From Squalus acanthias (lineage: Eukaryota): a DNA stretch of 64,000 nt. Both the position numbers and the translations under genes were made by a program. Positions 23,758 to 63,719 of the stretch are shown piece by piece (the stretch's first letter is position 1; the number at the start of each line of letters is the position of its first letter). The stretch spans positions 47,928,001 through 47,992,000 of the forward strand of contig CM059432.1 in assembly GCA_030390025.1 (NCBI GenBank), read 5' to 3'. Under the pieces are notes generated by a model. That model worked only from the letters and a program-made list of their open reading frames with translations. It ran no database searches and was not told the DNA's origin.

Positions 23758-26700
23758 ATGAAGATAACCATAGCCAGCCTCAACATCAATGGCAGCAGAG
23801 AGGCACGCCGTAGATTTAATAACTTCTCGTCCCTTCGGGAAGGGAGGCATGCGGTGTGCTTCCTGCAGGAAACTCACACCGTTCCGGGAGACGAGGCCAC
23901 GTGGCTCCTGGAGTGGCGAGGAGGGGTCAGCATGAGTCACCTCTCCAACGTTTCCGGTGGGGTGGCTATCTTGCTGGCCCCGCATTTTCAGCCGGAGATC
24001 TTGGGGGTCAAGGAGCATGTGCCGGGCCGCTTGCTCCAGGTCACTGTTCGTCTGGGGGGCGTGCCGCTCCATTTAGTGAACGTGTACGCCCCCCAGCCCG
24101 GTGCGCAGCAAGTGCGCTTCTTCGAAGAAGTGTCCGCTCTTCTGGGCACCGTCGACGTCAGCGAGTGCATCATCCTCGGGGGGGATTTTAATTGTACCCT
24201 CGAGGCGAGGGACCGTTCGGGCCCTCCGCGAAGCCTGACGGCGACGGTGAAGTTGAGGGACCTGGTCGGGTCCTTCGACTTGGTGGACGTCTGGCGAAAT
24301 CTCCATCCCGACTCCAGCGCCTTCACTTGGGTGGGGTCTGGAGGAGGAAGGTCCAGAATCGACCGCCTTTATATTTCCCGGGCGTACGTCTCCTGCGTTC
24401 CGGCGGCTTCCATGCGGCCGGTGCCGTGCACGGACCACCACCTGGTGTGGGCGGAGCTCGCTCCGTTGCAGGCGCCGGGGGGGTCCGCGTACTGGCATTT
24501 TAACAACCTGCTGCTGGAGGACGTGCGGTTCCGGGATTCGTTTCGCCGGTTCTGGGCCGACTGGAGAAGGAAGCAGGGGGGCTTCCCCTCCTTGAGGCTA
24601 TGGTGGGACGTGGGCAAGGCTCACGTCCGTCTCTTCTGTCAGGAGTACGCGAAGGGGGTCGACCAAGAGGCGGGAGGCCCGGGTCGGGCGATTGGAGAAG
24701 AAGTGCTCGACCTGGAGTCCCGTCTCGGTCAAGTCGTCGAAGACCCGGCCCTGCGGAAGGTGTACGAAGAGAAGAAGGGCGCGCTGAAGGACCTGCAGCT
24801 GGTCGGGTCCCGAGGCGCGTACGTGAGGTCGCGGATCCAGTTCCTGCGGGACCTGGACCGCGGCTCCCCCTTCTTCTACTCGCTGGAAAAAAGACGAGGG
24901 GTCCGTAAGCAGCTCTTGGGGCTGCTGGCCGACGACGGATCTCTGGTCTCGGATCCGGAGGGGATCAGCGCGGGGACCCGGGCCTATTACGGGGCTCTGT
25001 TCTCTCCGGATCCGTCCAGCGAGGATGCGCGCAGAGTTTTGTGGGAGGACCTGCCGAAGGTCGGCCCGGAGGGCGCCGAAGAATTGGACGCTCCGCTAAG
25101 TTTGGCGGAGCTGACCGGCGCCCTGCGCCAGCTCTCGAGGGGAAAGTCCCCGGGGCTGGACGGGCTGACCGTGGAGTTCCACAGGGCGTTCTGGGACGTC
25201 TTGGGGGGCGACTACGCGCGGGTCCTGGGGGAATGTCTGGCGACCGGGGAGATGCCCCTCTCTTGGCGCAGGGTGGTTATCGTCCTGCTGCCCAAGAAGG
25301 GTGATCTCCGCCTTTTAAAAAACTGGCGCCCGGTCTCCCTCCTCAGCACGGACTATAAAACTTTTGCCAGGGCCATGTCTGCCCGCCTCGGCACCGTGCT
25401 GGCCCACATGATCCACCCCGACCAGTCCTACACGGTCCCGGGCCGGACAATCAACGACAACATCCATCTGGTCCAGGACCTGGTCCACCTTTCCCAGAGG
25501 ACTGGTCTGTCGGTCGCCTTCCTTTCCCTGGATCAGGAGAAGGCGTTCGACAGGGTGGATCACGAGTATCTCTTCGGGACTCTGCGCGCATTCGGGTTCG
25601 GGACGCATTTCGTCGCCCGGATCCGACTTCTGTACGCCGCCGCGGAGTGTCTGATTAAAGTTAACGGGTCTTTGACGGCGCCTCTTCGCTTCGGGCGGGG
25701 GGTGCGTCAGGGATGCCCCATGTCCGGTCAGTTATATGCCGTTTGCGTGGAGCCTTTCCTGCGCCTCTTGCGGAAGAGGTTGACGGGACTGGCTCTGCAA
25801 GGGCCGGGCGTGGAGGTCGTCCTCTCGGCTTACGCCGATGACGTGCTCCTCATGGTCACGGATCCCGTCGACCTGCGGAGGATGCGAGAATGCCAGCAGA
25901 TTTACTCGGACGCATCCTCCGCCAGGATCAACTGGGAGAAATGTTCTGGACTCCTGGTGGGCCAGTGGCGGGTGGACTCCCTGCCGGAGGAGTTCAGGCC
26001 CTTCGCCTGGAGCACAACACACCTCCTCTACTTGGGAGTCTACCTCGGCCCTGCCGAGGACACCTGGCCGGCGAACTGGCAAGAGCTGGAGGCCAAGGTC
26101 ACCGCTCGCCTAGGACGCTGGACGGGGTTGCTCCGAGTGTTGTCCTACAGGGGTCGAGCGCTGGTCATAAACCAGCTGGTGGCCGCCATGTTGTGGTACC
26201 GGTTGGTCACTTTGATCCCTCCCCCTGCGTTTGTCGCCAAGATACAGAAGATGCTCATAGACTTCTTCTGGGACAAAAGGAAGCACTGGGTCTCTGCCGC
26301 GGTTCTGTGTCTCCCGCTTAGGGAGGGCGGTCAGGCGCTGGTGTGCCTTCGCACCCAGGCGGCGACTTTCCGTCTTCAGACGCTGCAGAGGTACCTTTAC
26401 GTCGAGAATCCTCCCAGATGGTGTGCGCTGGCGACGTATTTCTTCCGCCAGATGCACGGCCTCAACTACGACACGCAGCTCCTGTTTGTGGAATTGGGCC
26501 GCACGCGAGCCTACCTGTGGGAGCTGCCTGTCTTTTACCAGGAACTGCTATGGGTCTGGAACCAGGTCGCCTCCAGGCGGAGTTCTCCCCCGTCAGGAGT
26601 GGCGGCTCTCCTTCGGGAGCCGCTGTTCAGGAATCCGCACCTCCACGTCCGACGGATCGGCTGGCTGGCGGAGGGCAGGGCTGTGCCAGGCAAGGTGACC

Positions 26701-31300: not shown

Positions 31301-34300
31301 AGGAACATGTGCCGGGCCGCTTGCTCCAGGTCACTGTTCGCCTGGGGGGCGTGCCGCTCCATTTAGTGAACGTGTACGCCCCCCAGGCCGGTGCGCAGCA
31401 AGTGCGCTTCTTCGAAGAAGTGTCCGCTCTTCTGGGCACCATCGACGTCGGCGAGTGCGTCATCCTCGGGGGGGATTTTAATTCTACCCTTGAGGCGAGG
31501 GACCGTTCCGGTCCCCCGCGAAGCCTGGCGGCGACGGTGAAGTTGAGGGACCTGGTCGGGTCCTTCGACTTGGTGGACGTCTGGGGAAATCTCCATCCCG
31601 ACTCCAATGCCTTCACTTGGGCGGGGTCTGGAGGAGGAAGATCCAGAATCGTCCGCCTTTATATTTCCCGGGCGTACGTCTCCTGCATTCCAGCGGCTTC
31701 CATGCGGCCGGTGCCGTGCACGGACCACCACCTGGTGTGGGCGGAGCTCGCTCCATTGCGCGCGCCGGGGGGGTCCGCGTACTGGCATTTTAACAACCTG
31801 CTGCTGGAGGACGAGCGGTTCCGGGATTCGTTTCGCCAGTTCTGGGCCGACTGGAGAAGGAAGCAGGGGGGCTTCCCCTCCTTGAGACTATGGTGGGACG
31901 TAGGCAAGGCTCACGTCCGTCTCTTCTGTCAAGAGTACGCGAGGGGGTCGACCAAGAGGGGGGAGGCCCGGGTCGGGCGGTTGGAGAGGGAGGTGCTCGA
32001 CCTGGAGTCCCGTCTCGGTCAAGTCGTCGAAGACCCGGCCCTGCGGAAGGTGTACGAAGAGAAGAAGGGCGCGCTGAAGGACCTGCAGCTGGTCGGGTCC
32101 CGAGGCGCGTACGTGAGGTCGCGGATCCAGTTCCTCCGGGACCTGGACCGCGGCTCCCCCTTCTTCTACTCGCTGGAAAAAAGACGGGGGATCCGTAAGC
32201 AGCTCTTGGGGCTGCTGGCCGATGACAGATCTCTGGACTTGGATCCGGAGAGGATCAGCGCGGAGACCCGGGCCTATTACGGGGCTCTGTTCTCTCCGGA
32301 TCCGTCCAGCGAGGATGCGCGCAGAGTTTTGTGGGAGGACCTGCCGAAGGTCGGCCCGGAGGGCGCTGAAAAATTGGACGCTCCGCTAAGCTTGGCGGAG
32401 CTGACCGGCGCCCTCGGCCAGCTCTCGAGGGGAAAGTCCCCGGGACTGGACGGGCTGACCGTGGAGTTTCACAGGGCGTTCTGGGACGTCTTGGGGGGCG
32501 ACTACGCGCGGATCCTGGGGGAAAGTCTGGCGACCGGGGAGATGCCCCTCTCTTGGCGCAGGGCGGTCATCGTCCTGCTGCCCAAGAGGGGTGATCTCCG
32601 CCTCTTAAAAAACTGCCGCCCGGTCTCCCTCCTCAGCATGAACTATAACATTTTTGCCAGGGCCATGTCTGCCCGCCTTGGCACCGTGCTGGCCCTCATG
32701 ATCCACCCCGACCAGTCCTACACGGTCCCGGGCTGGTCCATCTATGACAACATCCATCTGGTCCGGGGCCTGGTCCACCTTTCCCAGAGGGCTGGTCTGT
32801 CGGTCGCCTTCCTCTCCCTGGATCAGGAGAAGGCGTTCGACAGGGTGGATCACGAGTATCTTTTCGGAACTCTGCGCGCATTCGGGTTCGGGACGCATTT
32901 CGGCGCCCGTATCTGACTTCTGTACGCCGCCGCGGAGTGTCTGATTAAAGTTAACGGGTCTTTGACGGCGCCCCTTCGCTTCGGGAGGGGGGTACGTCAG
33001 GGATGCCCCATGTATGGTCAGTTATACGTCGTTTGCGTGGAGCCTTTCCTGCGCCTCTTGCGGAAGAGGTTGATGGGACTGGCTCTGCAAGGGCCGGGCG
33101 TGGAGGTCGTCCTCTCGGCTTACGCCGATGACATGCTCCTCATGGTCACGGATCCCGTCGACTTGTGGAGGATGCGAGAATGCCAGCAGATTTATTCGGA
33201 CGCATCCTCTGCCAAGATCAACTAGGAGAAATGTTCTGGACTCCTGGTGGGCCAGTGGCGGGTGGACTCCCTGCCGGAGGAGTTCAGACCCTTCGCCTGG
33301 AGCACAACACACCTCCTCTACTTGGGAGTCTACCTTTGCCCTGCTGAGGACACCTGGCCGGCGAACTGGCAAGAGCTGGGCGGGGTTGCTCCGAGTGTTG
33401 TCCTACAGGGGTCGAGCGCTGGTCATAAACCAGCTGGTGGCCACCATGTTGTGGTACCGGTTGGTCACTTTGATCCCTCCCCCTGCGTTTGTCGCCAAGA
33501 TACAGAAGAAGCTCATCGACTTCTTCTGGGACAAAAGGAAGCACTGGGTCCCTGCCGCGGTTCTGTGTCTCCCGCTTAGGGAGGGCGGTCAGGCGCTGGT
33601 GTGCCTTTGCACCCAGGCGGCGACTTTCCGTCTTCAGACGCTGCAGAGATACCTTTACGTCGAGAATCCTCCCAGATGGTGTGCGCTGACGACGTATTTC
33701 TTCCGCCAGATGCACGGCCTCAACTATGACACGCAGCTCCTGTTTGTGGAATTGGGCCGCACGCGAGCCTACCTGTGGGAGCTGCCTGTCTTCTACCAGG
33801 AACTGCTATGCGTCTGGAACCAAGTTGCCTCCAGGTGGAGTTCTCCCCCGTCAGGAGTGGCGGCTCTCCTTCGGGAGCCGCTGCTCAGGAATCCGCACCT
33901 CCACGTCCGACGGATCGGGTGGCTGGCGGAGGGCAGGGCTGTGCCTGGCAAGGTGACCAGAGTCGGGGACCTGCTCGATGGCGGAGGAGCGGGCTGGATG
34001 GCGCCGGAGGAGTTGGCGCAGCGCCTCTCCTGGCTCGACGTCTGGCGCGCGGCCAAAGCCATCGAGTCGCTGAAAGTGTCACTGGGCCCCGACTCCACTA
34101 GGTGTATCGAGGAGGCTCAAGCACGTGGGGCGATCCCGTCTGAACTGACCCCCGTTCGGACGGAGTTCATCATCGGCGCGCGGCCCCGAAACCCCTCCCG
34201 GGAACCGGCGCCTCACAACTTGAGCTGTCTCGGGGAAATGCCCTCCGTGCCCTTTAATTCTGCACGGAGGGGTTTCCTGTACGGGATGCTCCTGCACACT

Positions 34301-34954: not shown

Positions 34955-37900
34955 TACATGGCCTACAATTCAGAGCAGCTGAAGGCAGTTAATTAGGGAA
35001 ACTAGATTAAACTGGTTTTCCTGTTGTAGGGCTTAGCCAGCTCCTTTGTTTCAGGGCCTATAAAAACAGGCTTTGCAGTGCGGTTTTAACAGAGTGCTAG
35101 GAGTTGGGTGAGTCAGGAAGTTAGGTGAGGAGTGGAAGGAGGAGCTCCCTTGCTTCACCTTTGCTTTTCCTAACTTTTCACCCTGTAGGAATTGGTTCTT
35201 ACTTTACACCAAGGAAAGAGTCCGAGAGCGGGAGCAGTCAAACAACAACAACTGCAAAACCGCTAAAGTGACATCACAACCAGGGAAGGAGCTGATTGGT
35301 AAGTAGGACCTGGAGAGTATTTCTATGGTCCAGTCATTAAAGTAAAAGTTAGGTCTCTAGTTTAGAGTAAGTAGTATGTAAAGTGAAGTAAGGTCCCTAG
35401 TGTATTTAATATTCTTTAATTTAGAGGAAGTAAGGGGAGTAAATTAAGGGTAGGACATGGCAGGGCAGCTCAGCAGCGTGGAGTGCTCCTCCTGTGCTAT
35501 GTGGGAAGTCAGGGACACTTTCGGTGCCCAGGGCGAACACGTGTGCAGGAAGTGTCTCCAGCTGCAGCTACTCGAAATCTGCATTTCGGAGCTGGAGCTG
35601 CAGCTAGAGTCACTGTGGAGCATCCGCGAGGCTGATATCTTCGTGGATAGCACGTTTAACGAGGTGGTCACACCGCAGGTAAAGAGTGCACAGGCAGAAA
35701 GGGAATGGGTGACTGCCAGACAGAGTAAAAGAACTAGGAAGGTAGTGCAGGAGTCCCCTGGGTCCATCTCCCTCTCCAACAGATTTTCCGTTTTGGATAC
35801 TGCTGGGGGAGATGGTTTCTCAGAGGAATGCAGCAAGAGCCAAGTCCGTGGCATTACGAGTGGCTCAGCTGCACAGGAGGGGAGGAAAAAGAGTGGGAGA
35901 GCAATAGTGATAGGGGATTCTATTGTAAGGGGAACAGATAGACGTTTCTGTGGCCGCAGACGTGATTCCAGGATGGTATGTTGCCTCCCTGGTGCCATAT
36001 TGACTGGGCTAATCAAATTACCACTAATGGTGTGGAGGACGAATTCTTGGAATGCATGCGAGATGGTTTCCTGGATCAGTATGTGGAGGAACCAACCAGG
36101 GAACAGGTTATTCTGGATCTGGTACTGTGTAATGAGAAAGGGCTAATCAATAATCTTGTGGTAAAGGGGCCTTTAGGGACAAGTGACCATAATATGATTG
36201 AATTTTATATTAAGTTTGAGAGTGATGAAGTCCAATCTGAAACTAAGGTCTTCAATCTAAACAGAGAAAACTACAAGGGTATGAGGGACAAGTTGGCCAT
36301 GGTAGATTGGGAGACTACACTAAAAAGTATGAAGGTGGACATACAATGGTTAACATTCAAGGAAATAATGCATAATTTGCAACAAACTTATATTGGTCCA
36401 GGACATAAAAACCCAAAAGGAAAAGTGATCCAACCATGGCTAACAAAAAAAATTAAAGCTAGTATTAAGTCAAAGGAGGAAGCTTATAAAGTTGCCAGAA
36501 AAAGTGGTCAGCCTGAGGATTGGGATCTTTTTAGAAATCAGCAAAGGGGAACCAAGAAATTGATAAAGAAAGGGAAAATGGAATATGAGCACAAACTAGC
36601 AAAAAATATAAAAACGGATTGTAACAGCTTCTATAGGTATGTGAAAAGGAAAAGACTGGCGAAGGTAAATGTAGGTCCTTTACAGTCAGAGACGGGAGAA
36701 TTTATAATGGGGAATGAGGAAATGGCTGAGAAATTAAAGAAATACTTTGTTTCTGTCTTCACGGGGGAAGACACAAAAAACCTCCCAGAAATACGAGAAA
36801 ACCAAGGGTGTGGTGAGAATGAGGAACTTAAAGAAATAATTATTAGTAAAAAAACAGTACTAGCAAAATTAATGGGACTAAAAGTCGATAAATCCCAAGG
36901 ACCGGATGACCTACATCCTAGGGTTTTGAAAGAGGTGGCCATTGGGATAGTGGACGCATTGGTTGTCATCTTCCAAAATTCTATAGATTCTGAATTCTGG
37001 TTCCTGCAGATTGGAGGATAGCAAATGTAACCCCGCTATTTAAGAAAGGAGGGAGAGAGAAAATGGGGAACTGCAGACCTGTTAGCCTCACATCAGTAGT
37101 TGGGAAAATGCTGGAATCTATTATAAAGGATGCAATAACTGGGCACTTAGAAACTAATAGTAAGATTGGGCAGAGTCAACATGGATTTATGAAAGGGAAA
37201 TCCTGTTTGACAAACCTATTGGAGTTCTTTGAGGATGTAACTAGTGGAGTAGACAAAGGGGAACCGGTAGATGTGGTGTATTTGGATTTTCAGAAGGCCT
37301 TCGATAAGGTCCCACACAAGAGGTTGGTGAACAAAGTTAGGGCACATGGAATTGGGGGTAATATACTAGCATGGATTGAGAATTGGTTAACAGACAGAAA
37401 ACAAAGAGTAGGGATAAACGGGTCTTTTTCAGGATGGCAGGCTGTGACTAGTGGGGTATCGCAAGGATCGGTGCTTGGGCCCCAGATATTCACAATCTAT
37501 ATCAATGATTTGAGTGAGGGGACTAAATGTAACATTTCCAAATTTGCTGATGACACAAGCTAGGTGGCAGTGTCAGTTGCGAAGAGGATGTGAAGAGGCT
37601 TCAAGGGGAACTCAACAGGCTCAGTGAGTGGGCGAGAACATGGCAGATGGAATATAATGTGGATAAATGTGAAGTTATCCACTTTGGTAGAAAAAACAGA
37701 AGGCAGGGTATTTCCTAATTGGTGAAAGATTGGGGAATGCAGATGCTCAAAGGGACCTGGGTGTCCTTGTACATGAGTCACTGAAAGTGAATGTGCAGGT
37801 GCAGCAAGCCATTAGGAAGGCAAATGGTATGCTGGCCTACATTACAAGAGGATTTGAGTACAGGAGTAAAGAAGTCTTACTCCAATTATAGAGGGCCTTG

Positions 37901-38478
37901 GTGAGACCACACCTGGAGTACTGTGTACAAATTTGGTCTTCTTACCTAAGGAAGGATATACTTGCCATAGAGGGAGTGCAGCGAAGGTTCACGAGATTGA
38001 TTCCTGGGATGGCGGGACTGTCGTATGAGAAGAGATTGAGTAAACTAGGCCTGTATTCTCTTGAATTTAGAAGAATGAGAGGGGATCTCATTGAAGCATA
38101 TAAAATTATTACAGGGCTTGATAGGGTGGATGCTGGGAGAATGTTTCCCTTGGCTGGGGAGTCTAGAACCAGGGGCCACAGCCTCAGGATAAAGGGTAGG
38201 CCATTCAGGACTGAGATGAGAAGAAATATCTTCACACAGAGGGTGGTGAATCTTTGGAATTCTCTACCCGAGAGGATTGTAGAGGCTCATTCTTTGGGTA
38301 TATTCAAAACAGAAGTCGATAGATTTCTGACTAGTAAGTGCATCAAGGGATATGGCGATAGGACCGGTGAATGGAATTGAGTCAGAAGATCAGCCATGAT
38401 CTCATTGAGTGGTGGAGCAGGCTCGAAGGGCCGAATGGCTTACTCCTGCTCCTATTTCTTATGTTCTTATGTTCTTAT
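34955..38478 (+). mobile_element. CR1 LINE with 5' UTR, internal deletion of the ORF1/ORF2 junction, and frameshifted ORF2
   Basis: ORF1 from 35457 (CxxC...CxxC, IGDSIV) joins mid-APE at ~35997. RT motif KFADD; (ATGTTCTT)n tail. Confidence 0.93.
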
Positions 38479-42368: not shown

Positions 42369-44305
42369 ATGACTTCTTCCAGAGGCAAGGCAGCTCCTCG
42401 TTTTAATGATGACTCCCTCCATGTTCTTGTGGATGCTGTCAGAGGGCGCAGGGAGATTCTCTTCCCTCCTGATGGCTGGAGGAAGCCTCCTCAGCAGACC
42501 AAGGCAGCCTGGCTGCGCATTGCTGAGGAGGTCAACGCAAGGTCCATATATGCACGGTCATGGATCCAGTGCTGAAAAAGGTTTAATGATCTTGTGCGAA
42601 CATCAAAAGTGAGTAGCCCATCTCACTTGCCTTCACTCTGCTTCCCTTCACTTCTCATCACCAGCACTCTGCTTTGTAAGCCTCCTCCTTCACATCCCAC
42701 CTTACTCTTACTTCCCTTGCACCCTTACCTATCCATCTCTGTCTCTGCACTGAATCACTTCAGCATCCTGCCTATGCGCCCCTTCGACTCGCTCTCACTG
42801 TCATGCAGTGACAACAACTAACAACGCACAGGGAGCTACCTTCCTCTTGGCACCTTACCCCATCTTCGTCTCCCACAAAGCTTCTATGGGAGGGATTAAT
42901 CACACTCACTCCATCACTGTGGCTGAAACACCGCTTGTGTCCCTCCTTGCAGGAAAAGATAGCCCACAATAAGAGGGAGAGAGCAATGACTGGAGGAGGA
43001 ACACCTACCCTAGCCACATTGACCAGTGCTGAGGAGGCAGCAAATGAGATTGTTGGCGGTGGTGAGGACCTGGAAGTGGGCGATGGCGAGACGGGCACAC
43101 TAGAGGAAGCTGGTGACATAATAGAGTTTCACCCCTCTCAGAATGCAATGGCATATGATGTTCATAGACAATCGCATTGTATCATCTGCTCAAAAGGATG
43201 TGTCGGCTACATTAATATCAGATGTCTAAATCATGCCTTTACTCTCCCACAGGACCATCGAGTGCCCCCTTCCCCATGATCCAGGACGAAGAACCGGACA
43301 ACTCCTCAGAGGAACCTGAAGCCTCTGAGGGAGCAGCGTCACCAGGACTCAGCGCACCCAGCACCAGCGCAGCAACGCACAGCTCGGTGGGGCCCTCGCG
43401 AGTTAGAGTTGCCACCTGGTCTATCACAGCGCACAAGTGAGCCTCGGCAGATGATGGAGACAGTGACAGCAGCGGAGAGTTCTCTGCGGAGGTCGCAGGA
43501 CTCTCTTAGCTCTGCTGAACTGCATGCAGACTCTGTGCCTCTGGGACCATCCAGAAAAAGAGTGTCTCGGGAAATACAGGAACAAGTGCAGGTGTCTCTG
43601 GAAGGGTTTGCCTCCAGGGTTAGTGCGAGTGTGGAGAGAATGGAGGAGTCCATCTATAACATCAGCATTGCCGTGGTGGAGGCAATGGTGCATGAATGCA
43701 CTACCATGGATAGGATGGCAACCTCCGTGGAAAGGCTGGCTACCTCAGTGGAAAGGATGGCTACGGCCATGGAGGAAATAAGTCGGCAGAGTCAGAAAAA
43801 CATGGTGACTGTTCAAAATAGAATGTCATCTCTGGAGGAGCGATGGGCAGCTATTGGGCAGAGAGACCAGAGCTTCATCGACGTCCTTTTGAGGAGGACT
43901 GCCAGTGCAGATATGGGTCCTCATGTTCTCCATGATGTGCAGCAAGGTGCTCTCCAGCCACTTGCCAGCACTGAGGTGCGGCTGACCCATGAGAGGGATG
44001 TTGTTGGCAGGACAGAAGGAAGTGTGGGCTTCTCTCAAAGCGCTCACATGACCATGCCACTGCGGAGCCCTCAGTCAGATACCCACTTTGCAGAGACAAC
44101 TGAGATGGCCATTTCAGCCCCTGCACAGCTGCAGGAAGAGCAGACTTTTGAAGAGCCCTCCCAGGCTCCCAAACCCAGAGGACGCCCGCCAAAGGTATCT
44201 AAGCAGGCGCAGCATCCTAGTCAGCAAGGTGCCTCTACATCTGCTGAAGCCACAGGAGAAGCACCACGTAGAAGCACACGTAAGAGAAAGATTAAGCACC
44301 TATAG
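42369..44305 (+). pseudogene. Harbinger Myb/SANT gene, three exons (42369-42608, 42953-43112, 43253-44305)
   Basis: Canonical GT-AG borders with compatible phases. One TGA (42573) and one frameshift (~43408). Heptad repeats and a basic C-terminal NLS-like tail. Confidence 0.88.
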
Positions 44306-44532: not shown

Positions 44533-44769
44533 CACAGAGGCGGCGGACCTGGGTGGAGCGGCTGCGGCGAGGCGGAGGACTTAAGAGGCGGCGGCGACCA
44601 GGTAGGCCCACAGAGGCGGCGGACCTGGGTGGAGCGGCTGCGGCGAGGCGGAGGACTTAAGAGGCGGCGGCGACCAGGTAGGCCCACAGAGGCGGCGGAC
44701 CTGGGTGGAGCGGCTGCGGCGAGGCGGAGGACTTAAGAGGCGGCGGCGACCAGGTAGGCCCACAGAGGC
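44533..44769 (+). repeat. Three identical 76-bp CpG-rich monomers in the CR1 5' UTR
   Basis: CACAGAGGC recurs at 44533, 44609, 44685 and 44761. Confidence 0.95.
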
Positions 44770-44965
44770 TTTTAAAGTGCGGGACGCAGTGGTTGCTGGG
44801 TAGGTGATTAATTTTTACCTGTATATAAGTTGGGCAGTTCCTAAACCCGAGACACTACACTTGTAGTGTCCCCCACCCTTCCTCCTCCTCTAACCTAAAG
44901 GAGGTGAGTGACTATCAGGTAAGCTCTTTTTTGTTCTAGTTTAATCTGCAAGTTAGCTGGAGGGG

Positions 44966-45892
44966 ATGGCAGGGGAGGCAGTGAAATGTTCCTCCTGCAG
45001 AATGTTTGAGGTGAGGGACGCCGTCGGTGTCCCTGCTGATTACACCTGTGGGAAGTGCACCCATCTCCAGCTCCTCGAAAACCGTGTTAGGGAACTGGAG
45101 CTGGAGCTGGATGAACTTCGGATCATTCGGGAGGCAGAGGAGGTCATAGATAGAAGCTTCAGGGATGTAATTACTCCAAAGCATGAAGATAGATGGGTGA
45201 CGGTGAGAGGGGCTGGGAGGAAGCAGTCAGTGCAGGGATCCTCTGTGGTCGTTCCCCTCAGTAACAGGTATACCGCTTTGAATACTGTTGAGGGGGACGA
45301 CTTACCAGTGGTAAGCCACGGTGACCGGATCTCCGGCGCTGGGTCGGTCCCTGTGGCTCAGAAGGGAAGGGGGGAGAGCAGGAGAGCAATAGTTATTGGG
45401 GACTCAATAGCCAGAGGGACAGATAGGAGGTTCTGTGGCAGCAAAAGAGACTCACGGATGGTATGTTGCCTCCCAGGTGCCAGGGTCCGTGACGTCTCGG
45501 ACCGTGTTTTCAGAATCCTCAAAGGGGAAGGGGAACAATCACAAGTCGTGGTACACATCGGTACCAACGACATAGGTAGGAGAAGGGACGGGGATTTAAA
45601 ACAGGAATTTAGGGAGCTAGGTTGGAAGCTGAGAGCCAGTACAAACCATGTTGTAATTTCTGGTTTGTTGCCGGTGCCACGTGCTAGCGAGTTGAGGAAC
45701 AGGGAGAGAGTGCAGATAAACACGTGGCTGCAGGGATGGTGTAGGGGGGAGGGTTTCAGTTATGTGGATAATTGGAGCACATTCTGGGGAAGGTGGGACC
45801 TGTACAAACAGGACGGTTTGCACCTGAACCAGAGGGGCACCAATATCCTGGGAGGGAAATTTGCTACGGCTCTTCGGGGGGGTTTAAACTAA
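44966..45892 (+). CDS. CR1 ORF1p: zinc finger + leucine zipper + SGNH/GDSL esterase (308 aa)
   Basis: CSSC...CGKC, LENRVRELELELDEL, IGDS, HIGTND and DGLH. Confidence 0.95.
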   Translation: MAGEAVKCSSCRMFEVRDAVGVPADYTCGKCTHLQLLENRVRELELELDELRIIREAEEVIDRSFRDVITPKHEDRWVTVRGAGRKQSVQGSSVVVPLSNRYTALNTVEGDDLPVVSHGDRISGAGSVPVAQKGRGESRRAIVIGDSIARGTDRRFCGSKRDSRMVCCLPGARVRDVSDRVFRILKGEGEQSQVVVHIGTNDIGRRRDGDLKQEFRELGWKLRASTNHVVISGLLPVPRASELRNRERVQINTWLQGWCRGEGFSYVDNWSTFWGRWDLYKQDGLHLNQRGTNILGGKFATALRGGLN

Positions 45893-48789
45893 TTTGTCAG
45901 GGGGATGGGAAAAAGGGCTGTAGTCCACGAGCCAGTGGTGAGTGTAGGGAGGTACTGAGGAGGGTATCAAGGTCGCAGGAATATACCGGCAGACAGGAAG
46001 ATGGCTTGAAGTGTGTCTACTTCAATGCAAGGAGCATCCGGAATAAGGTAGGAGAACTTGGAGCGTGGATTGGTACTTGGGACTACGATGTGGTGGCCAT
46101 TACAGAGACATGGTTAGAACAGGGACAGGAATGGTTGTTGGAAGTTCCGGGGTATAGATGTTTCAGTAAGAGTAGGGAAGGTGGTAAGAAAGGTGGAGGA
46201 GTAGCATTGTTAATCAAGGATAGTTTAACAGCGGCAGAAAGGCAGTTCGAGGGGGATCTGCCGTCTGAGGTAATATGGGCTGAAGTTAGAAATAGGAAAG
46301 GAGCGGTCACGTTGTTAGGAGTTTTCTACAGGCCCCCAAATAGTAATAAAGATGTGGAGGAAGAAATTGCAAAGCAGATTATGAATAGGTGTGGAGGTCA
46401 CAGAGTAGTTGTCATGGGTGACTTCAACTTTCCAAATATTGATTGGAACCTTTATAGGTCAAACAGTTCGGATGGGATAGTTTTTGCACAGTGTGTGCAG
46501 GAGGGTTTCCTGACACAATATGTGGATAGGCCGACAAGAGGTGGGGCCACGTTGGATTTGGTACTGGGTAATGAACCGGGCCAAGTGTTTGATTTGTATG
46601 TGGGAGAGCACTTTGGAGATAGTGACCACAATTCGGTAACTTTCACTATTGCAATGGAGAGGGATAGGGCCATACGGCAGGGCAGGGTTTATAATTGGGG
46701 GAGGGGTAATTATGATGCGATTAGGCAAGAAGTAGGGAGTATAAGATGGGAACAGAAACTATCAGGGAAAGGCACAAACGAAAAGTGGAGCTTTTTCATG
46801 GAGCAATTACTGCGTGTCCTTGATAGGTATGTCCCTGTCAGGCAGGGAGGAAATGGCCGAGTGAGAGAACCATGGTTTACAAAAGAGGTTGAATGTCTAG
46901 TCAAGAGGAAAAAGGAAGCGTATGTAAGGATGAGAAAACAAGGTTCAGTTGGGTCGATTGAGGGGTACAAGGTAGCAAGGAATGAGCTAAAAAAAGAGCT
47001 TAGGAGAGCTAGGAGGGGGCATGAGAAGTCCTTGGCGGGTCGGATCAAGAAAAACCCCAAGGCCTTTTACTCTTATGTGAGAAATAAAAGAATGACCAGG
47101 GTGAGGGTAGGGTCGGTCAAGGACAGTAGTGGGAAGTTGTGCATGGAGTCAGAAGAGATAGGAGAGGTGATGAATGAATACTTTTCGTCAGTGTTCACCG
47201 AGGAGAGGGGCCATGTTCTTGAGGATGAGAGTGTGATAAAGGTAGATAGGCTGGAGGTGGTAGATGTTCTGAGGGAAGATGTTTTAGCAATTTTGAAGAA
47301 CCTGAGGGTCGATAAGTCCCCTGGGCCAGATGGGATATATCCTAGGATTCTTTGGGAGGCAAGGGAGGAGATTGCAGAGCCTCTGGCTTTGATCTTTGGG
47401 TCCTCACTGTCCACGGGGATGGTGCCAGAGGACTGGAGAGTGGCGAATGTTGTTCCTCTCTTCAAGAAAGGAAATAGGAATGACCCTGGTAATTATAGGC
47501 CGGTTAGTCTTACTTCGGTGGTTGGTAAGATAATGGAAAAGGTCCTGAGGGATAGGATTTATGACCATTTGGAAAGGGGCAACTTAATCAGGGATAGTCA
47601 ACACGGATTCGTGAAGGGTAAGTCTTGCCTAACAAATTTGATTGAATTCTTTGAGGAGGTAACTAAGTGTGTAGATGAAGGTAGAGCAGTTGATGTCGTA
47701 TACATGGATTTTAGTAAGGCGTTTGATAAGGTTCCCCATGGTCGTCTCATGAAGAAAGTAAGGAGTTGTGGGATAGAGGGAAATTTGGCCGATTGGATAA
47801 GTAACTGGCTATCTCATAGAAGGCAGAGGGTGGTGGTGGATGGAACATTTTCGGACTGGAGACCAGTTACCAGCGGTGTGCCACAGGGGTCGGTGCTGGG
47901 TCCTCTGCTGTTTGTGATTTTTATCAATGACTTGGAGGAGGGGACTGAAGGGTGGATCAGTAAATTTGCTGATGACACCAAGATTGGTGGAGTAGTGGAT
48001 GAGGTGGAGGGCAGTTGTAGGCTGCAAAGAGACATTGATAGGATGCAGAGCTGGGCCGAAAAATGGCAGATGGAATTTAACCCTGATAAGTGCGAGGTGA
48101 TTCATTTTGGTAGGGCAAATGTGAATAAGGATTACAGGGTCAACGGCAGGGTTCTGAGGAACGTGGAGGAGCAGAGGGATCTGGGGGTTCATATCCACAG
48201 ATCTCTGAAGGTTGCCACTCAAGTGGATAGAGCAGTAAAGAAGGCCTGTGGTGTGTTGGCGTTTATTAACAGAGGGTTTGAGTTTAAGAACCGTGAGGTT
48301 ATGCTGCAACTGTACAGGACCTTGGTGAGACCACATTTGGAATATTGTGTGCAGTTCTGGTCACCTCACTATAGGAAGGACGTGGAAGCATTGGAAAGAG
48401 TGCAAAGGAGATTTACCAGGATGCTGCCTGGTTTGGGGGGGAGGTCTTATGAGGAAAGATTGAGGGAGTTGGGGCTTTTTTCTTTAGAGCGGAGGAGGAT
48501 GAGAGGCGACTTAATAGAGGTTTATAAGATGATGAGGGGGATAGATAGAGTGGATGTTCAGAGACTATTTACTCGGGTAGAGGCAGCTGTTACAAGGGGG
48601 CATAACTATAAGGTGCATGGGGGGAGATATAGAAGGGATGTCCGAGGTAGATTCTTTACTCAGAGAGTGGTTGGGGTGTGGAATGGACTGCCTGCTGTGA
48701 TAGTGGAGTCGGACACTTTAGGAACTTTCAAGCGGTTATTGGATAAGCACATGGAGCACACCAGAGTGATAGGGAGTGTGATAGCTTGA
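45889..48789 (+). CDS. CR1 ORF2p: AP endonuclease + RT; -1 frame to ORF1, no upstream AUG (start given at the predicted frameshift)
   Basis: FNARSI, ITETW, GDFN, SDH; QGSVLGP, KFADD. Open from 45772; first ATG is at 46381. Confidence 0.93.
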   Translation, partial: LICQGDGKKGCSPRASGECREVLRRVSRSQEYTGRQEDGLKCVYFNARSIRNKVGELGAWIGTWDYDVVAITETWLEQGQEWLLEVPGYRCFSKSREGGKKGGGVALLIKDSLTAAERQFEGDLPSEVIWAEVRNRKGAVTLLGVFYRPPNSNKDVEEEIAKQIMNRCGGHRVVVMGDFNFPNIDWNLYRSNSSDGIVFAQCVQEGFLTQYVDRPTRGGATLDLVLGNEPGQVFDLYVGEHFGDSDHNSVTFTIAMERDRAIRQGRVYNWGRGNYDAIRQEVGSIRWEQKLSGKGTNEKWSFFMEQLLRVLDRYVPVRQGGNGRVREPWFTKEVECLVKRKKEAYVRMRKQGSVGSIEGYKVARNELKKELRRARRGHEKSLAGRIKKNPKAFYSYVRNKRMTRVRVGSVKDSSGKLCMESEEIGEVMNEYFSSVFTEERGHVLEDESVIKVDRLEVVDVLREDVLAILKNLRVDKSPGPDGIYPRILWEAREEIAEPLALIFGSSLSTGMVPEDWRVANVVPLFKKGNRNDPGNYRPVSLTSVVGKIMEKVLRDRIYDHLERGNLIRDSQHGFVKGKSCLTNLIEFFEEVTKCVDEGRAVDVVYMDFSKAFDKVPHGRLMKKVRSCGIEGNLADWISNWLSHRRQRVVVDGTFSDWRPVTSGVPQGSVLGPLLFVIFINDLEEGTEGWISKFADDTKIGGVVDEVEGSCRLQRDIDRMQSWAEKWQMEFNPDKCEVIHFGRANVNKDYRVNGRVLRNVEEQRDLGVHIHRSLKVATQVDRAVKKACGVLAFINRGFEFKNREVMLQLYRTLVRPHLEYCVQFWSPHYRKDVEALERVQRRFTRMLPGLGGRSYEERLRELGLFSLERRRMRGDLIEVYKMMRGIDRVDVQRLFTRVEAAVTRGHNYKVHGGRYRRDVRGRFFTQRVVGVWNGLPAVIVESDTLGTFKRLLDKHMEHTRVIGSVIA

Positions 48790-49643
48790 TCTTGGTCTCG
48801 GACAATGCTCGGCACAACATCGAGGGCCGAAGGGCCTGTACTGTGCTGTACTGTTCTATGTTCTATGTTCTATGTCACCTGCAATTACAGGGCCATATGG
48901 TAGCCACCTATGGTTGAAGAATAAGCTTATGCTAATGTGGCATGGCAGTGTGCATACCTTGCTTGACGGGCAGCAGTGAACTGGAGGGATGCTGCATTGG
49001 TCACAACAGGGCATGCAAGGTACCCCTCGTCGTCCTCCTACTCCTCTTCCCAGGAAGATCTGCGCTGAGATACATGGTTGCTACTCCTCCGATTATGAGG
49101 ACAAGGATGAGAGGGCATAAATGTTTCCCATCCCCTTGCTATAGATTTCATTTGAGGCAACAATCTTGCAAGTGCACAATCGAAGTGGCCTGAAATTATT
49201 CCATTCATGTCACACTACAGATGGGTGTCAGCTTGAACAGTCACAAGGTCAGTAGATATGCAAAATCTTATCCCATACCTACAACCGCAAAATTGTTGCA
49301 TTTAAATGTCAGCCATGTTTCAGGGGCACTTTTAAAGCGCTCCACCAATGCAAACAAATCATGTCCTCCAGCAACTCGTCTCCTTGAACCTGGCCTGTTT
49401 CTGACAAGTCGGGGAACAGGAGCCAGAAGCCCGAAAACGGGAAACCACTATCAAAATAGGATTAGCAAGGCAGTGAAGAGGCTGTTAACTGCCTTAACTA
49501 CCTGTCCCACCGGTTCCAGTCAGGTCAGTTTGGGAGCAGCTGAACAGACACTCACGAAAATCAGGTGGGAGCGGGATGGAGGTGGGTTTTTGCAACAGAC
49601 CTGCCTCCAAACCCGCCTCCTCAGGGCTATTAAAATCGAGCCC

Positions 49644-61995: not shown

Positions 61996-63719
61996 TATGT
62001 CACCCTTCTACACTAGTTGTGAATACCTTGATCTTTCGTTTACTATTTAACTTGTAGCTGCCAAATTCCAATTGCTGCACAGATTTGGCAGCATTTTACC
62101 CTGTCTCTACATTATACATTTTCACTGATGTGAGCAGCCTCTCCCTTTATTTGTTCATACATTTTTATAAGGCGCAGCCTTCCTAGTTCAATGTATTTAG
62201 CTGAGTGTCATAACAAGAGGGCTGAACATATTTTCTCCACAATAGGAAAGGTCTTACTGCTTTGATGATAGGAATCTATCACTTAGCTCGGAATCTAACG
62301 ATGATATCAGGGGCTGCATTAACCCTTTTTATACTCCAGTTGTAAATTGGCAGCTTTCAAATTAAAACAAATATGTTGTTTAGAAAGGGTTTTTTTTACA
62401 CTTATTTTAGGTCAGATTTAAAACTAGCTTAAGACAAAGCATGAGAAAAGTGAGAAGGAAACTGATTTTTGATCAAGTTTGTGTGAATAGAGCATTTAAA
62501 ATTCCTTGATGTCCCAACCCAATGTGTTGGCTAACATCCGTAATTTGACATGACCCACAGCCCATTCTGTGTCCTGGTTTGTAGGAAACCTGTAGTTTGC
62601 ACACTGGATGAGAACTAATTCAGATCAGATCGATGCAATCCAAATTTACATTGGAAATTCAATTCAATAATTAATCATTTTATTTTGGGGGGGAAATAAT
62701 AAAATTAAATTGCCTGTTCAAAGTAGGCTTATGTTCCTTTCAAGGAGGAATACCTTTCATTTTACACACAAGCTAGATATCATTGTATTTAAACTAGTGG
62801 GAATATATGGAAGAAAGAACTGATGGATATGCAAGCAGAAGAAATAGGATCTGTGTTGTGAGATTTGTTTAATGAAGCATACCCCAGAGCGACATGTAAA
62901 TTGTGTCACATCTGCAGAGTCACTCGAAAAGCCAGTGTTTGAAACTGGCTCATCTTGATCCGTGAGCTTCAAGCTCCTTCTGAGGCTGATAAGCTGTTTG
63001 ACCCTAAATATACATGGACAATAATTTATACTGTTCTCCAAGATGAAACGGGTCAGTGGAGGCAATATCCTTTGAAGTTTCTTTTTACCTCCCAGTAATA
63101 GCGAAAAGAAATGGTGAACAGTACAGGAAGAGGCAGCAACGAGAAACAGTCCTGGGTCACACTGGCTCGTTGAATCCCGAATTTCTCAAGTGTGACAAAC
63201 TGAACCTGAATCCTCAAAAAACAGTGGAGCAATTTTGTCCTATTGCTAGTGATATTAATTAATTAGGGATCGGGAAAATTGTGGGAAAAAGACATCTGTA
63301 CTAATTAAGTTCAGTAATGAATATAAATCCTGGTTGCTATGGAGATTCTAACCCTGCTGGATACACATTTGGATACTTTGCCAAACGGGTTTGTTGCACC
63401 TTTGTTGATTCTAGGAAAAAGCCTTTCCCTTTGGAGCATCTTTATGCAACCTTTAGTATTAATAAATGTGTATTCAACCATCTTATTTTAAGGGCAGTAT
63501 CGGTTACCAGGCATATTTGCAGCAAAAGCATGTCAGAAAAGTTGAATTTGTTTGAGACTGCGAAGCTAAAAATGGATTTGGAAATAAGCAGAAACTTGGA
63601 GAATTATATTGTGGTGACAATTTAAAAAACATGTATGAGTTGATATTAAAATATAAGCAGTAGTCCAAATATATTTCCATGGTACTTTGCATCATGTACA
63701 AACTACTTCAAAGTTTATT

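Follow-up and report, generated by a model that had tools for sequence, protein, structure and literature searches.

The window analysed here, 64,000 nucleotides of the genome of the shark Squalus acanthias (GenBank assembly GCA_030390025.1, contig CM059432.1, positions 47,928,001 to 47,992,000 of the forward strand), contains a copy of a CR1-group long interspersed nuclear element (LINE) that looks competent for retrotransposition. CR1 LINEs are the commonest retrotransposons of sharks, reptiles and birds. Two open reading frames (ORFs) are found in the copy: ORF1, whose product (ORF1p) contains an esterase, and ORF2, which encodes an endonuclease and a reverse transcriptase (RT). At the end of ORF1 lies a candidate site of −1 programmed ribosomal frameshifting (PRF), the heptamer U_UUA_AAC, at which a slip of the ribosome would fuse the two products into a single protein of 1274 amino acids (aa). 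We put the probability that this site is functional at roughly 0.7. By comparison with diverged relatives it has the appearance of a canonical, deeply conserved −1 signal in a class of elements in which the translation of ORF2 is thought to work otherwise. No published proposal of frameshifting in CR1 elements was found in a full-text literature search; older subscription papers lay out of its reach, and an earlier remark on the overlap is possible. A word search of five papers on CR1 or other LINEs did not find the word ‘frameshift’ (PMC3894237, PMC2881922, PMC13343379, PMC4120745, PMC3905857).

The slippery heptamer occupies positions 45883..45889 of the plus strand, in the sequence CGG GGG GGT TTA AAC TAA at 45875-45892 (divided into ORF1 codons), and is adjoined by the TAA stop codon of ORF1 (45890..45892, plus strand). 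A preliminary description of this DNA, made from its letters, had placed T-TTA-AAC here in ORF1 phase and against the stop, with ORF2 open across it at −1, and the sequence confirms both points: the ORF1 and ORF2 frames start at 2 and 1 modulo 3, respectively, and the ORF2 frame is open from 45772. A −1 slip at the heptamer would join 308 residues of ORF1 to 966 of ORF2, so that the length of 1274 aa and the junction ...RGGLN/LICQGDG... given in that description hold as a conceptual reading. Two other heptamers, G_GGG_GGU (45877) and G_GGU_UUA (45880), both in phase, overlap and precede U_UUA_AAC in the window family. In total, ORF1 contains five in-phase X_XXY_YYZ heptamers in 307 positions, three of them stacked at its very end, and the chance rate for any such heptamer is about 1 per 256 codon positions. 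Because in-phase heptamers arise by chance, the window locus taken alone is weak evidence, and the weight has to come from conservation. A second TTTAAACTAG in the window, at 62788, was set aside as a chance match; it sits in AT-rich DNA that is not CR1.

The family to which the window copy belongs is very young and abundant. A 401-nt junction probe returned 1269 candidates in the 3.7-Gb assembly, and all 40 that were scored were 100% identical to the window over 45700-46100. The 30 family copies that were fetched were 99.0-100% alike over 1.9-3.4 kb, and 123 of 127 scored ORF1 matches were free of stop codons. Since identical young copies are uninformative on selection, diverged relatives were sought. 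The pooled set comprises 31 distinct junctions in 13 sequence clusters, from shark families of the source genome and from bird-like CR1s on metagenome contigs. The preliminary description had proposed, as a check, that TTTAAAC should be conserved at the nucleotide level, in phase and with ORF2 at −1, and this holds in both the shark families and the bird-like CR1s. The heptamer is TTTAAAC in 29 of the 31 junctions, TTTAAAT in one and GTTAAAC in one; TTTAAAT is also slippery. The stop codon follows directly in all 31 and is never displaced (TAG in 19, TAA in 12). Across 11 cluster representatives, pairwise identity is 1.00 at eight consecutive positions, TTAAACTA, and 0.82 at the first T, against values of mostly 0.2-0.5 in the surrounding 200 nt. 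The Leu codon before AAC is always TTA, though TTA accounts for 13% of the Leu codons of the window element. The base preceding TTA is T in 30 of the 31 junctions, and the codon that it closes varies (GGT, GCT, ACT, TCT or GAT, for Gly, Ala, Thr, Ser or Asp). On this comparison heptamer and stop codon are conserved together, as a single unit.

The pooled counts are built from several kinds of relatives. In a second abundant shark family, reached through a 42%-identical ORF1p relative (P0054), all 12 copies fetched have GCT/ACT TTA AAC TAA and an ORF2 at −1, whose frame opens only 22 nt before the ORF1 stop. Twenty older shark copies, with ORF1 49-60% identical to that of the window, have TTTAAAC (19 copies) or TTTAAAT (one copy) directly before TAA or TAG. 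Six further short loci have TTTAAAC in five cases and TTTAAAG in the sixth, a decayed copy. The scan of metagenome contigs produced 40 loci, which are taken to be bird-like CR1 copies because most of them were best matched by a penguin ORF1 protein. All seven of those that keep the end of ORF1 read GCT/TCT TTA AAC TAG, with ORF2 at −1 in the five where it is visible, and decayed bird-like copies carry TTTACGA or TTTCAAC. Among other sources of DNA from other species, a scan of genome contigs gave only bacterial SGNH hydrolases, and two scans of viral contigs gave no relative. Contigs of four sequencing runs from four organisms list no variant in 45859-45913 and list variants on both sides; contigs drop rare variants, and this gap is weak support for conservation.

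From the heptamer onward, it is the −1 frame that is coding. Of 36 junctions, 31 keep this frame open over the next 120 nt or so when it is read from the last base of the heptamer, whereas the 0 frame is open over that stretch in one junction and the +1 frame in two; the median open lengths are 40 codons for the −1 frame, 9 for the 0 frame and 15 for the +1 frame. Similarity between lineages, and with it their alignability, is lost beyond about 45911. In most lineages, the ORF2 frame is closed upstream until 13-22 nt before the ORF1 stop. Because it opens so late, any change of frame would be confined to the last few codons of ORF1. The sequences ...GGFKL... and ...EGFKL... occur in two ray gene models and correspond to the ORF2 frame through TTT AAA CTN. 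A search for natural fusion proteins with ORF1 and ORF2 in a single frame gave only two matches, one of them a chimeric ray gene model.

The proteins carry the same signal at the C-terminus of ORF1p. In 103 ORF1p homologues (from sharks, rays, chimaera, frogs, eel and birds), 62 reach the last esterase block, and 58 of these finish with Leu-Asn, the other four being IN, LNY and two truncated forms. In an alignment of 22 proteins, L307 and N308 are invariant, with a mean column identity of 43%. A wider set was obtained by a profile search of 1.84 billion cluster representatives, which yielded 141 ORF1 proteins reaching the C-terminal block, 111 of them with a C-terminal Asn. The ending LN is found in 94 of the 141, and in 93 of these the residue at −3 can be encoded by an NNT codon (G, A, T, S, Y, C, D, F, H, L, I, V or N), with E occurring once; Q never stands before LN. 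Ten proteins end in GN and have Q at −3 in nine cases and S in one, which fits CAG GGA AAC (G_GGA_AAC), and two end in KN, each with S at −3, in keeping with TCA AAA AAC (A_AAA_AAC). Both G_GGA_AAC and A_AAA_AAC belong to the classical slip sites of eukaryotes at which Asn occupies the A site. As far as the proteins reveal the codons, the whole three-residue unit switches as a slippery heptamer predicts, unlike what would be expected under protein constraint. No close relative of the GN-type ORF1 was found in the source genome, where the best match was 38-40% identical and came from LN families.

A second conserved element lies downstream. The G-tracts mentioned in the preliminary description proved to be real and conserved: a G-rich tract, GGGGGAUGGGAA, is found at 45900..45911 on the plus strand, starting 10 nt after the heptamer, and is a candidate linear stimulator. 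It reads GGGGGAUGGGA in sharks and GGGGGAAGGGGA in bird-like copies. In 20 of 30 junctions, the first run of at least four G begins at a distance of exactly 10 nt downstream of the heptamer, and positions 17, 18 and 20, counted from the heptamer start, are invariant among the 11 cluster representatives. The Gly codons that the tract forms in the −1 frame are always GGG, and thus a constraint at the RNA level is indicated.

The anatomy of the junction, its nucleotide conservation, the coding status of the −1 frame from the heptamer onward and the covariation at the ORF1p C-terminus are observed; we infer that the ribosome slips here, how efficiently it does so, what the G-run contributes and what becomes of the fusion. 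At the slip, the tRNAs on UUA (P site) and AAC (A site) would both move back by one base and re-pair with UUU and AAA. CUA would then be read next, so that the ORF1 stop would be missed. A minority of ribosomes would in this way produce the 1274-aa protein, in which zinc finger, coiled coil and esterase are fused to endonuclease and RT, and the remainder would terminate and release free ORF1p. While the heptamer is being decoded, the G-run would lie approximately at the mRNA entry of the ribosome. The usual pseudoknot may be replaced as the stimulator by this run, possibly assisted by a bound protein and possibly by the abutting stop codon. The shared coiled coil could draw the fusion into assemblies of ORF1p, as Gag-Pol joins Gag. 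A low efficiency of slipping would suit a LINE, which needs little ORF2 protein (ORF2p).

Three features of canonical −1 PRF sites are thus present at the junction: a heptamer in phase, an ORF2 open across it at −1, and conservation at the nucleotide level that includes synonymous positions. Several observations nevertheless weigh against a functional site. The evidence for it is comparative throughout. The other canonical feature, a stimulatory stem-loop or pseudoknot 5-9 nt downstream, was not found. The minimum free energy (MFE) of the region after the heptamer is −27.0 kcal/mol, against −26.65 ± 2.68 kcal/mol for shuffled sequences (z = −0.13), and the consensus fold of eight shark junctions contains 0 pairs, pseudoknots being outside both methods; a search of Rfam gave 0 matches at the junction. 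The lack of a canonical stem had been anticipated in the preliminary description and is borne out by these figures. That description had also pointed to a weak pseudoknot formed by GGCT/AGCC and CCAC/GTGG. The sequence is present at 45916..45938 (plus strand), but it is not conserved outside the young window family, and it was rejected as a conserved element on the basis of the 0 consensus pairs and the z-score of the single fold. Four bird-like copies (L078, L082, L083 and L086) have a weak hairpin of the CCAGGC...GCCTGG type about 28-50 nt after the heptamer, with 8 pairs, −4.1 kcal/mol and one covarying pair, and this hairpin is absent from the shark families. A G-quadruplex was likewise considered and rejected as too weak to claim, given that a three-quartet motif is found in 1 of 30 junctions and a two-quartet motif in 21 of 30. 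The G-run itself begins at 10 nt, beyond the usual 5-9 nt, and its role as a stimulator is a conjecture.

Other points on the same side concern the counts. The lineages are not independent, and the numbers given above therefore overstate the number of evolutionary tests. One metagenome lineage (L075) has the imperfect G_UUA_AAC. Of 19 older shark copies with an ORF2 match, the match is in the −1 frame in 10 and in the 0 or +1 frame in nine, where it starts deeper in the endonuclease domain; we read the off-frame matches as the result of later indels or decay. In the wider protein set, 30 of 141 sequences do not end in N, including variants that read through (SLNC, SLNMQ and SGNL) and a group resembling the zebrafish element ZfL2-1. 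The GN and KN classes are known from proteins alone and may represent few evolutionary events.

The alternative that survives best is that ORF2p is made as a separate protein, by termination-dependent reinitiation or by AUG-independent initiation, and that the conserved block acts as a termination and reinitiation signal, for instance as a tether for the 40S subunit. Overall this appears unlikely. The multiplication of the window family is recent, and hence an intact ORF2 protein must be expressed, and an AUG start cannot supply one: in each of the 10 family copies with ORF2 at −1, the first ATG of the ORF2 frame comes 491 nt past the stop of ORF1 (in the window at 46381..46383 on the plus strand, frame residue 204), inside the endonuclease domain, and the endonuclease match begins 89 nt after the stop. 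No restart codon was therefore found at or near the ORF1 stop in this family, near-cognate starts being a further possibility. The argument of the preliminary description, that reinitiation at an AUG could not make an intact endonuclease, stands for the window family and fails for some other lineages, in which ATGs occur early. The second shark family has an ATG in the ORF2 frame 41 nt past the stop, and the bird-like copies L078 and L082 have one 2 nt past it. These ATGs count against frameshifting as the general explanation, because a start codon that precedes the endonuclease domain makes reinitiation possible in those lineages. Moreover, the absence of an upstream ATG in the window family leaves room for non-AUG initiation of the kind reported for human L1.

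Precedent in other LINEs also speaks for a separate ORF2p. In human L1, ORF2 is translated by an unconventional termination-reinitiation that is independent of AUG and for which the inter-ORF sequence is dispensable (PMC2881922, PMC5009743), and in the silkworm element SART1, ORF2 is translated through UAAUG coupling in dependence on the translation of ORF1 (PMC3894237). These too are bicistronic LINE RNAs; their ORF2 is expressed by way of ribosomes that have translated ORF1, and their ORF2p is made at a low level, as would hold for CR1. They differ from the mode proposed for CR1 in making a separate ORF2p and in having no slippery heptamer, whereas CR1 has an invariant block of 9 nt at the end of ORF1. 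Reinitiation would fit the invariable place of the stop against the heptamer, observed in 31 of 31 junctions and not required of a pure slip site. It would also fit the GGGA-type words in the conserved tract, which resemble the calicivirus TURBS motif. However, it leaves unexplained the exclusive use of TTA for Leu, the T at the wobble position before it whatever the residue, the switch of the endings as whole units to Q-G-N and S-K-N, and the −1 frame that stays open from the heptamer itself. The ATGs near the stop are unconserved across lineages, with those of L077 and L090 in the 0 frame and none nearby in L083 and L086, and the known tethering motifs lie upstream of the stop and not downstream.

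Quite improbable is the explanation that the block serves a required Leu-Asn-COOH end of ORF1p combined with an RNA element (for packaging, localisation or transcription), the match to a slippery heptamer being coincidental. The invariance of L307 and N308 among columns of much lower mean identity is what it would predict, and the conservation of the G-rich tract at synonymous −1-frame positions points to some role at the RNA level. Yet a protein constraint fixes neither the rare TTA codon nor the wobble T of the codon before it, and it does not predict that alternative endings should be other canonical heptamers with the matching residue at −3. The in-phase position, the location of ORF2 at −1 and the late opening of its frame (13-22 nt before the stop) all fit recoding.

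Scarcely credible is a fusion at the level of nucleic acid, by slippage of a polymerase or RT in the G7 run or through copies with extra G as the source of ORF2p: such copies exist, but the G-run before the heptamer is unconserved (other families and bird-like copies have GAGGGC, GAGGTC and similar), the contigs of the four runs list no junction indel, and the extra G may be homopolymer-length errors of the assembly. Junction indels were observed in genomic copies L124, L125, L126, L127 and L133, as real variants or as assembly errors of this type. L125 and L126 have G8 instead of G7 before the heptamer. A 5-nt deletion in L124 (G000:C14) puts ORF1 and ORF2 into a single open frame of 1270 aa, and in L133 (G000:C10), from another family, G9 in place of G8 gives an open frame of 1290 aa. 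In one genomic copy, a 19-nt deletion between two G-runs removes the heptamer.

A −1 frameshift at the CR1 junction would have close parallels in viruses. U_UUA_AAC is the heptamer at which coronaviruses and arteriviruses shift from ORF1a to ORF1b, and the viral sites rely on a pseudoknot a few nucleotides downstream. The CR1 junction resembles them in the identical heptamer, in its phase, in the tandem slip of tRNA-Leu and tRNA-Asn, and in the presence of a downstream polymerase ORF at −1. It differs in that the viral 0-frame stop is not adjacent, whereas that of CR1 is adjacent in every junction, with a G-run at 10 nt and no conserved structure; furthermore, coronaviruses and arteriviruses are RNA viruses, whereas the host of the CR1 site is a cellular LINE. 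A stop directly after a slip site is known from Rous sarcoma virus, in which A_AAU_UUA is followed at once by the UAG of gag. Distal stimulators that work with trans-acting proteins include the C-rich motif of arteriviruses and the 2A protein of cardioviruses. The CR1 motif is instead G-rich, and a factor binding it is a conjecture. In general, a minority of frameshift stimulators sit 12-15 nt downstream and are linear or protein-dependent, according to a review of frameshifting (PMC5009743).

The expression of CR1 would likewise resemble that of Gag and Gag-Pol, where a small fixed fraction of ribosomes extends an abundant, RNA-associated first protein and the slip site lies at the end of the first ORF. 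Conversely, non-LTR elements (those that lack long terminal repeats, LTRs) have neither Gag nor a protease, and the ORF1p of CR1 is an esterase with a coiled coil. As there is no protease in non-LTR elements, the CR1 fusion would act uncleaved. Of the animal LTR elements surveyed in the same review, 28 of 51 have pol at −1, and only HeT-A and TART are named among non-LTR elements in its available part, with no mention of CR1 (PMC5009743). The zebrafish element ZfL2-1 has a homologous SGNH esterase behind a dimerising coiled coil (PDB 4c1b; PMC3905857), and it differs from CR1 in that proteins of its type have no Asn before the stop. These proteins (P0171, P0172, P0192, P0225 and P0236) read ‘DGLHP’ instead of ‘DGLHL’, as ZfL2-1 does. 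Because they lack the terminal Asn, a CR1-type junction seems to be missing from the L2 branch, which may express ORF2 differently.

The window copy is a full-length young CR1-group LINE of about 4.34 kb at 44533..48875 on the plus strand, the strand on which all its parts lie, and other copies align from 44533 onward at 99.0-100% identity. It begins with a 5′ untranslated region (UTR) at 44533..44769 in which a 76-bp sequence is repeated in tandem, in 3.1 units with 100% matches according to Tandem Repeats Finder. The number of units of this G+C-rich repeat varies between genomic copies, as indicated by shifted secondary alignments. A 2026 survey mentions repeating subunits near the 5′ UTR for CR1-group elements that lack ORF1 (PMC13343379). 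ORF1 encodes 308 aa at 44966..45892, in a stop-to-stop frame of 44957..45892 with the first ATG at 44966 in the ORF listing, and comprises a CxxC...CxxC zinc-finger-like motif, leucine heptads and an SGNH/GDSL esterase. The esterase matches Pfam PF13472 (E 2.9e-13, residues 146-294) and PDB 4c1b, an ‘ORF1-encoded protein’ that is the ORF1p esterase of ZfL2-1 (E 1.9e-28). C28, C31, L37, L44 and L51 of ORF1p are invariant or nearly so in the 22-protein alignment. ORF2, as read after a −1 slip, would extend over 45889..48789 (966 codons plus stop). Its endonuclease matches Pfam PF03372 (E 2.4e-22; frame residues 83-286, nt 46018-46629) and its RT Pfam PF00078 (E 6.3e-37; frame residues 567-806, nt 47470-48189). 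The element ends in the microsatellite (TGTTCTA)3.4 at 48852-48875. The features of the CR1 group are thus found in it: an APE-type endonuclease followed by RT in ORF2, an esterase in ORF1 and a short 3′ microsatellite. Relatives of its ORF1p include bird proteins, and the esterase type is the only type of ORF1 identified in vertebrate CR1 and L2 lineages according to the 2026 survey (PMC13343379).

Other retroelement sequences lie elsewhere in the window. Another CR1 copy, at 35457-38329, has ORF1 residues 1-172 joined to ORF2 residue 183 by an internal deletion and is therefore without the end of the esterase, the junction and the start of the endonuclease. At least 10 further CR1 fragments are present on both strands. 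Two segments 7.3 kb apart, at 24874-25980 and 32164-33270, both match RT residues 393-747 at only 25% identity; their appearance suggests two copies of another retroelement family, or else a local duplication. Just upstream of the LINE, an open frame of 341 aa (43280-44305) contains the repeated ...SVERMATS/SVERLATS... and has only sub-threshold matches in Pfam.

The translation of ORF2 in LINEs is a long-standing question, and the answers given for L1 and SART1 are separate proteins made by poorly understood reinitiation. If the frameshift is real, it would provide a simple and testable mechanism of ORF2 expression for a whole major clade, in which the efficiency of recoding sets the ratio of ORF2p to ORF1p and the shared coiled coil explains both cis-preference and co-assembly. 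Pipelines that call CR1 ORF2 from its first ATG would then mis-define the protein, and expression of the Gag-Pol type would extend from LTR elements and viruses to non-LTR elements. The G-run fixed at 10 nt, for which no accompanying stem is conserved, might belong to a novel class of frameshift stimulators in eukaryotes. A broader proposal, which we advance tentatively, is that CR1-clade LINEs have for more than 400 million years made their endonuclease and RT only as an uncleaved fusion, that the stimulator is no RNA structure but a new linear signal made up of the abutting stop and the G-run at 10 nt, possibly read by a trans-acting protein such as ORF1p, and that sister lineages have swapped the heptamer for G_GGA_AAC or A_AAA_AAC.

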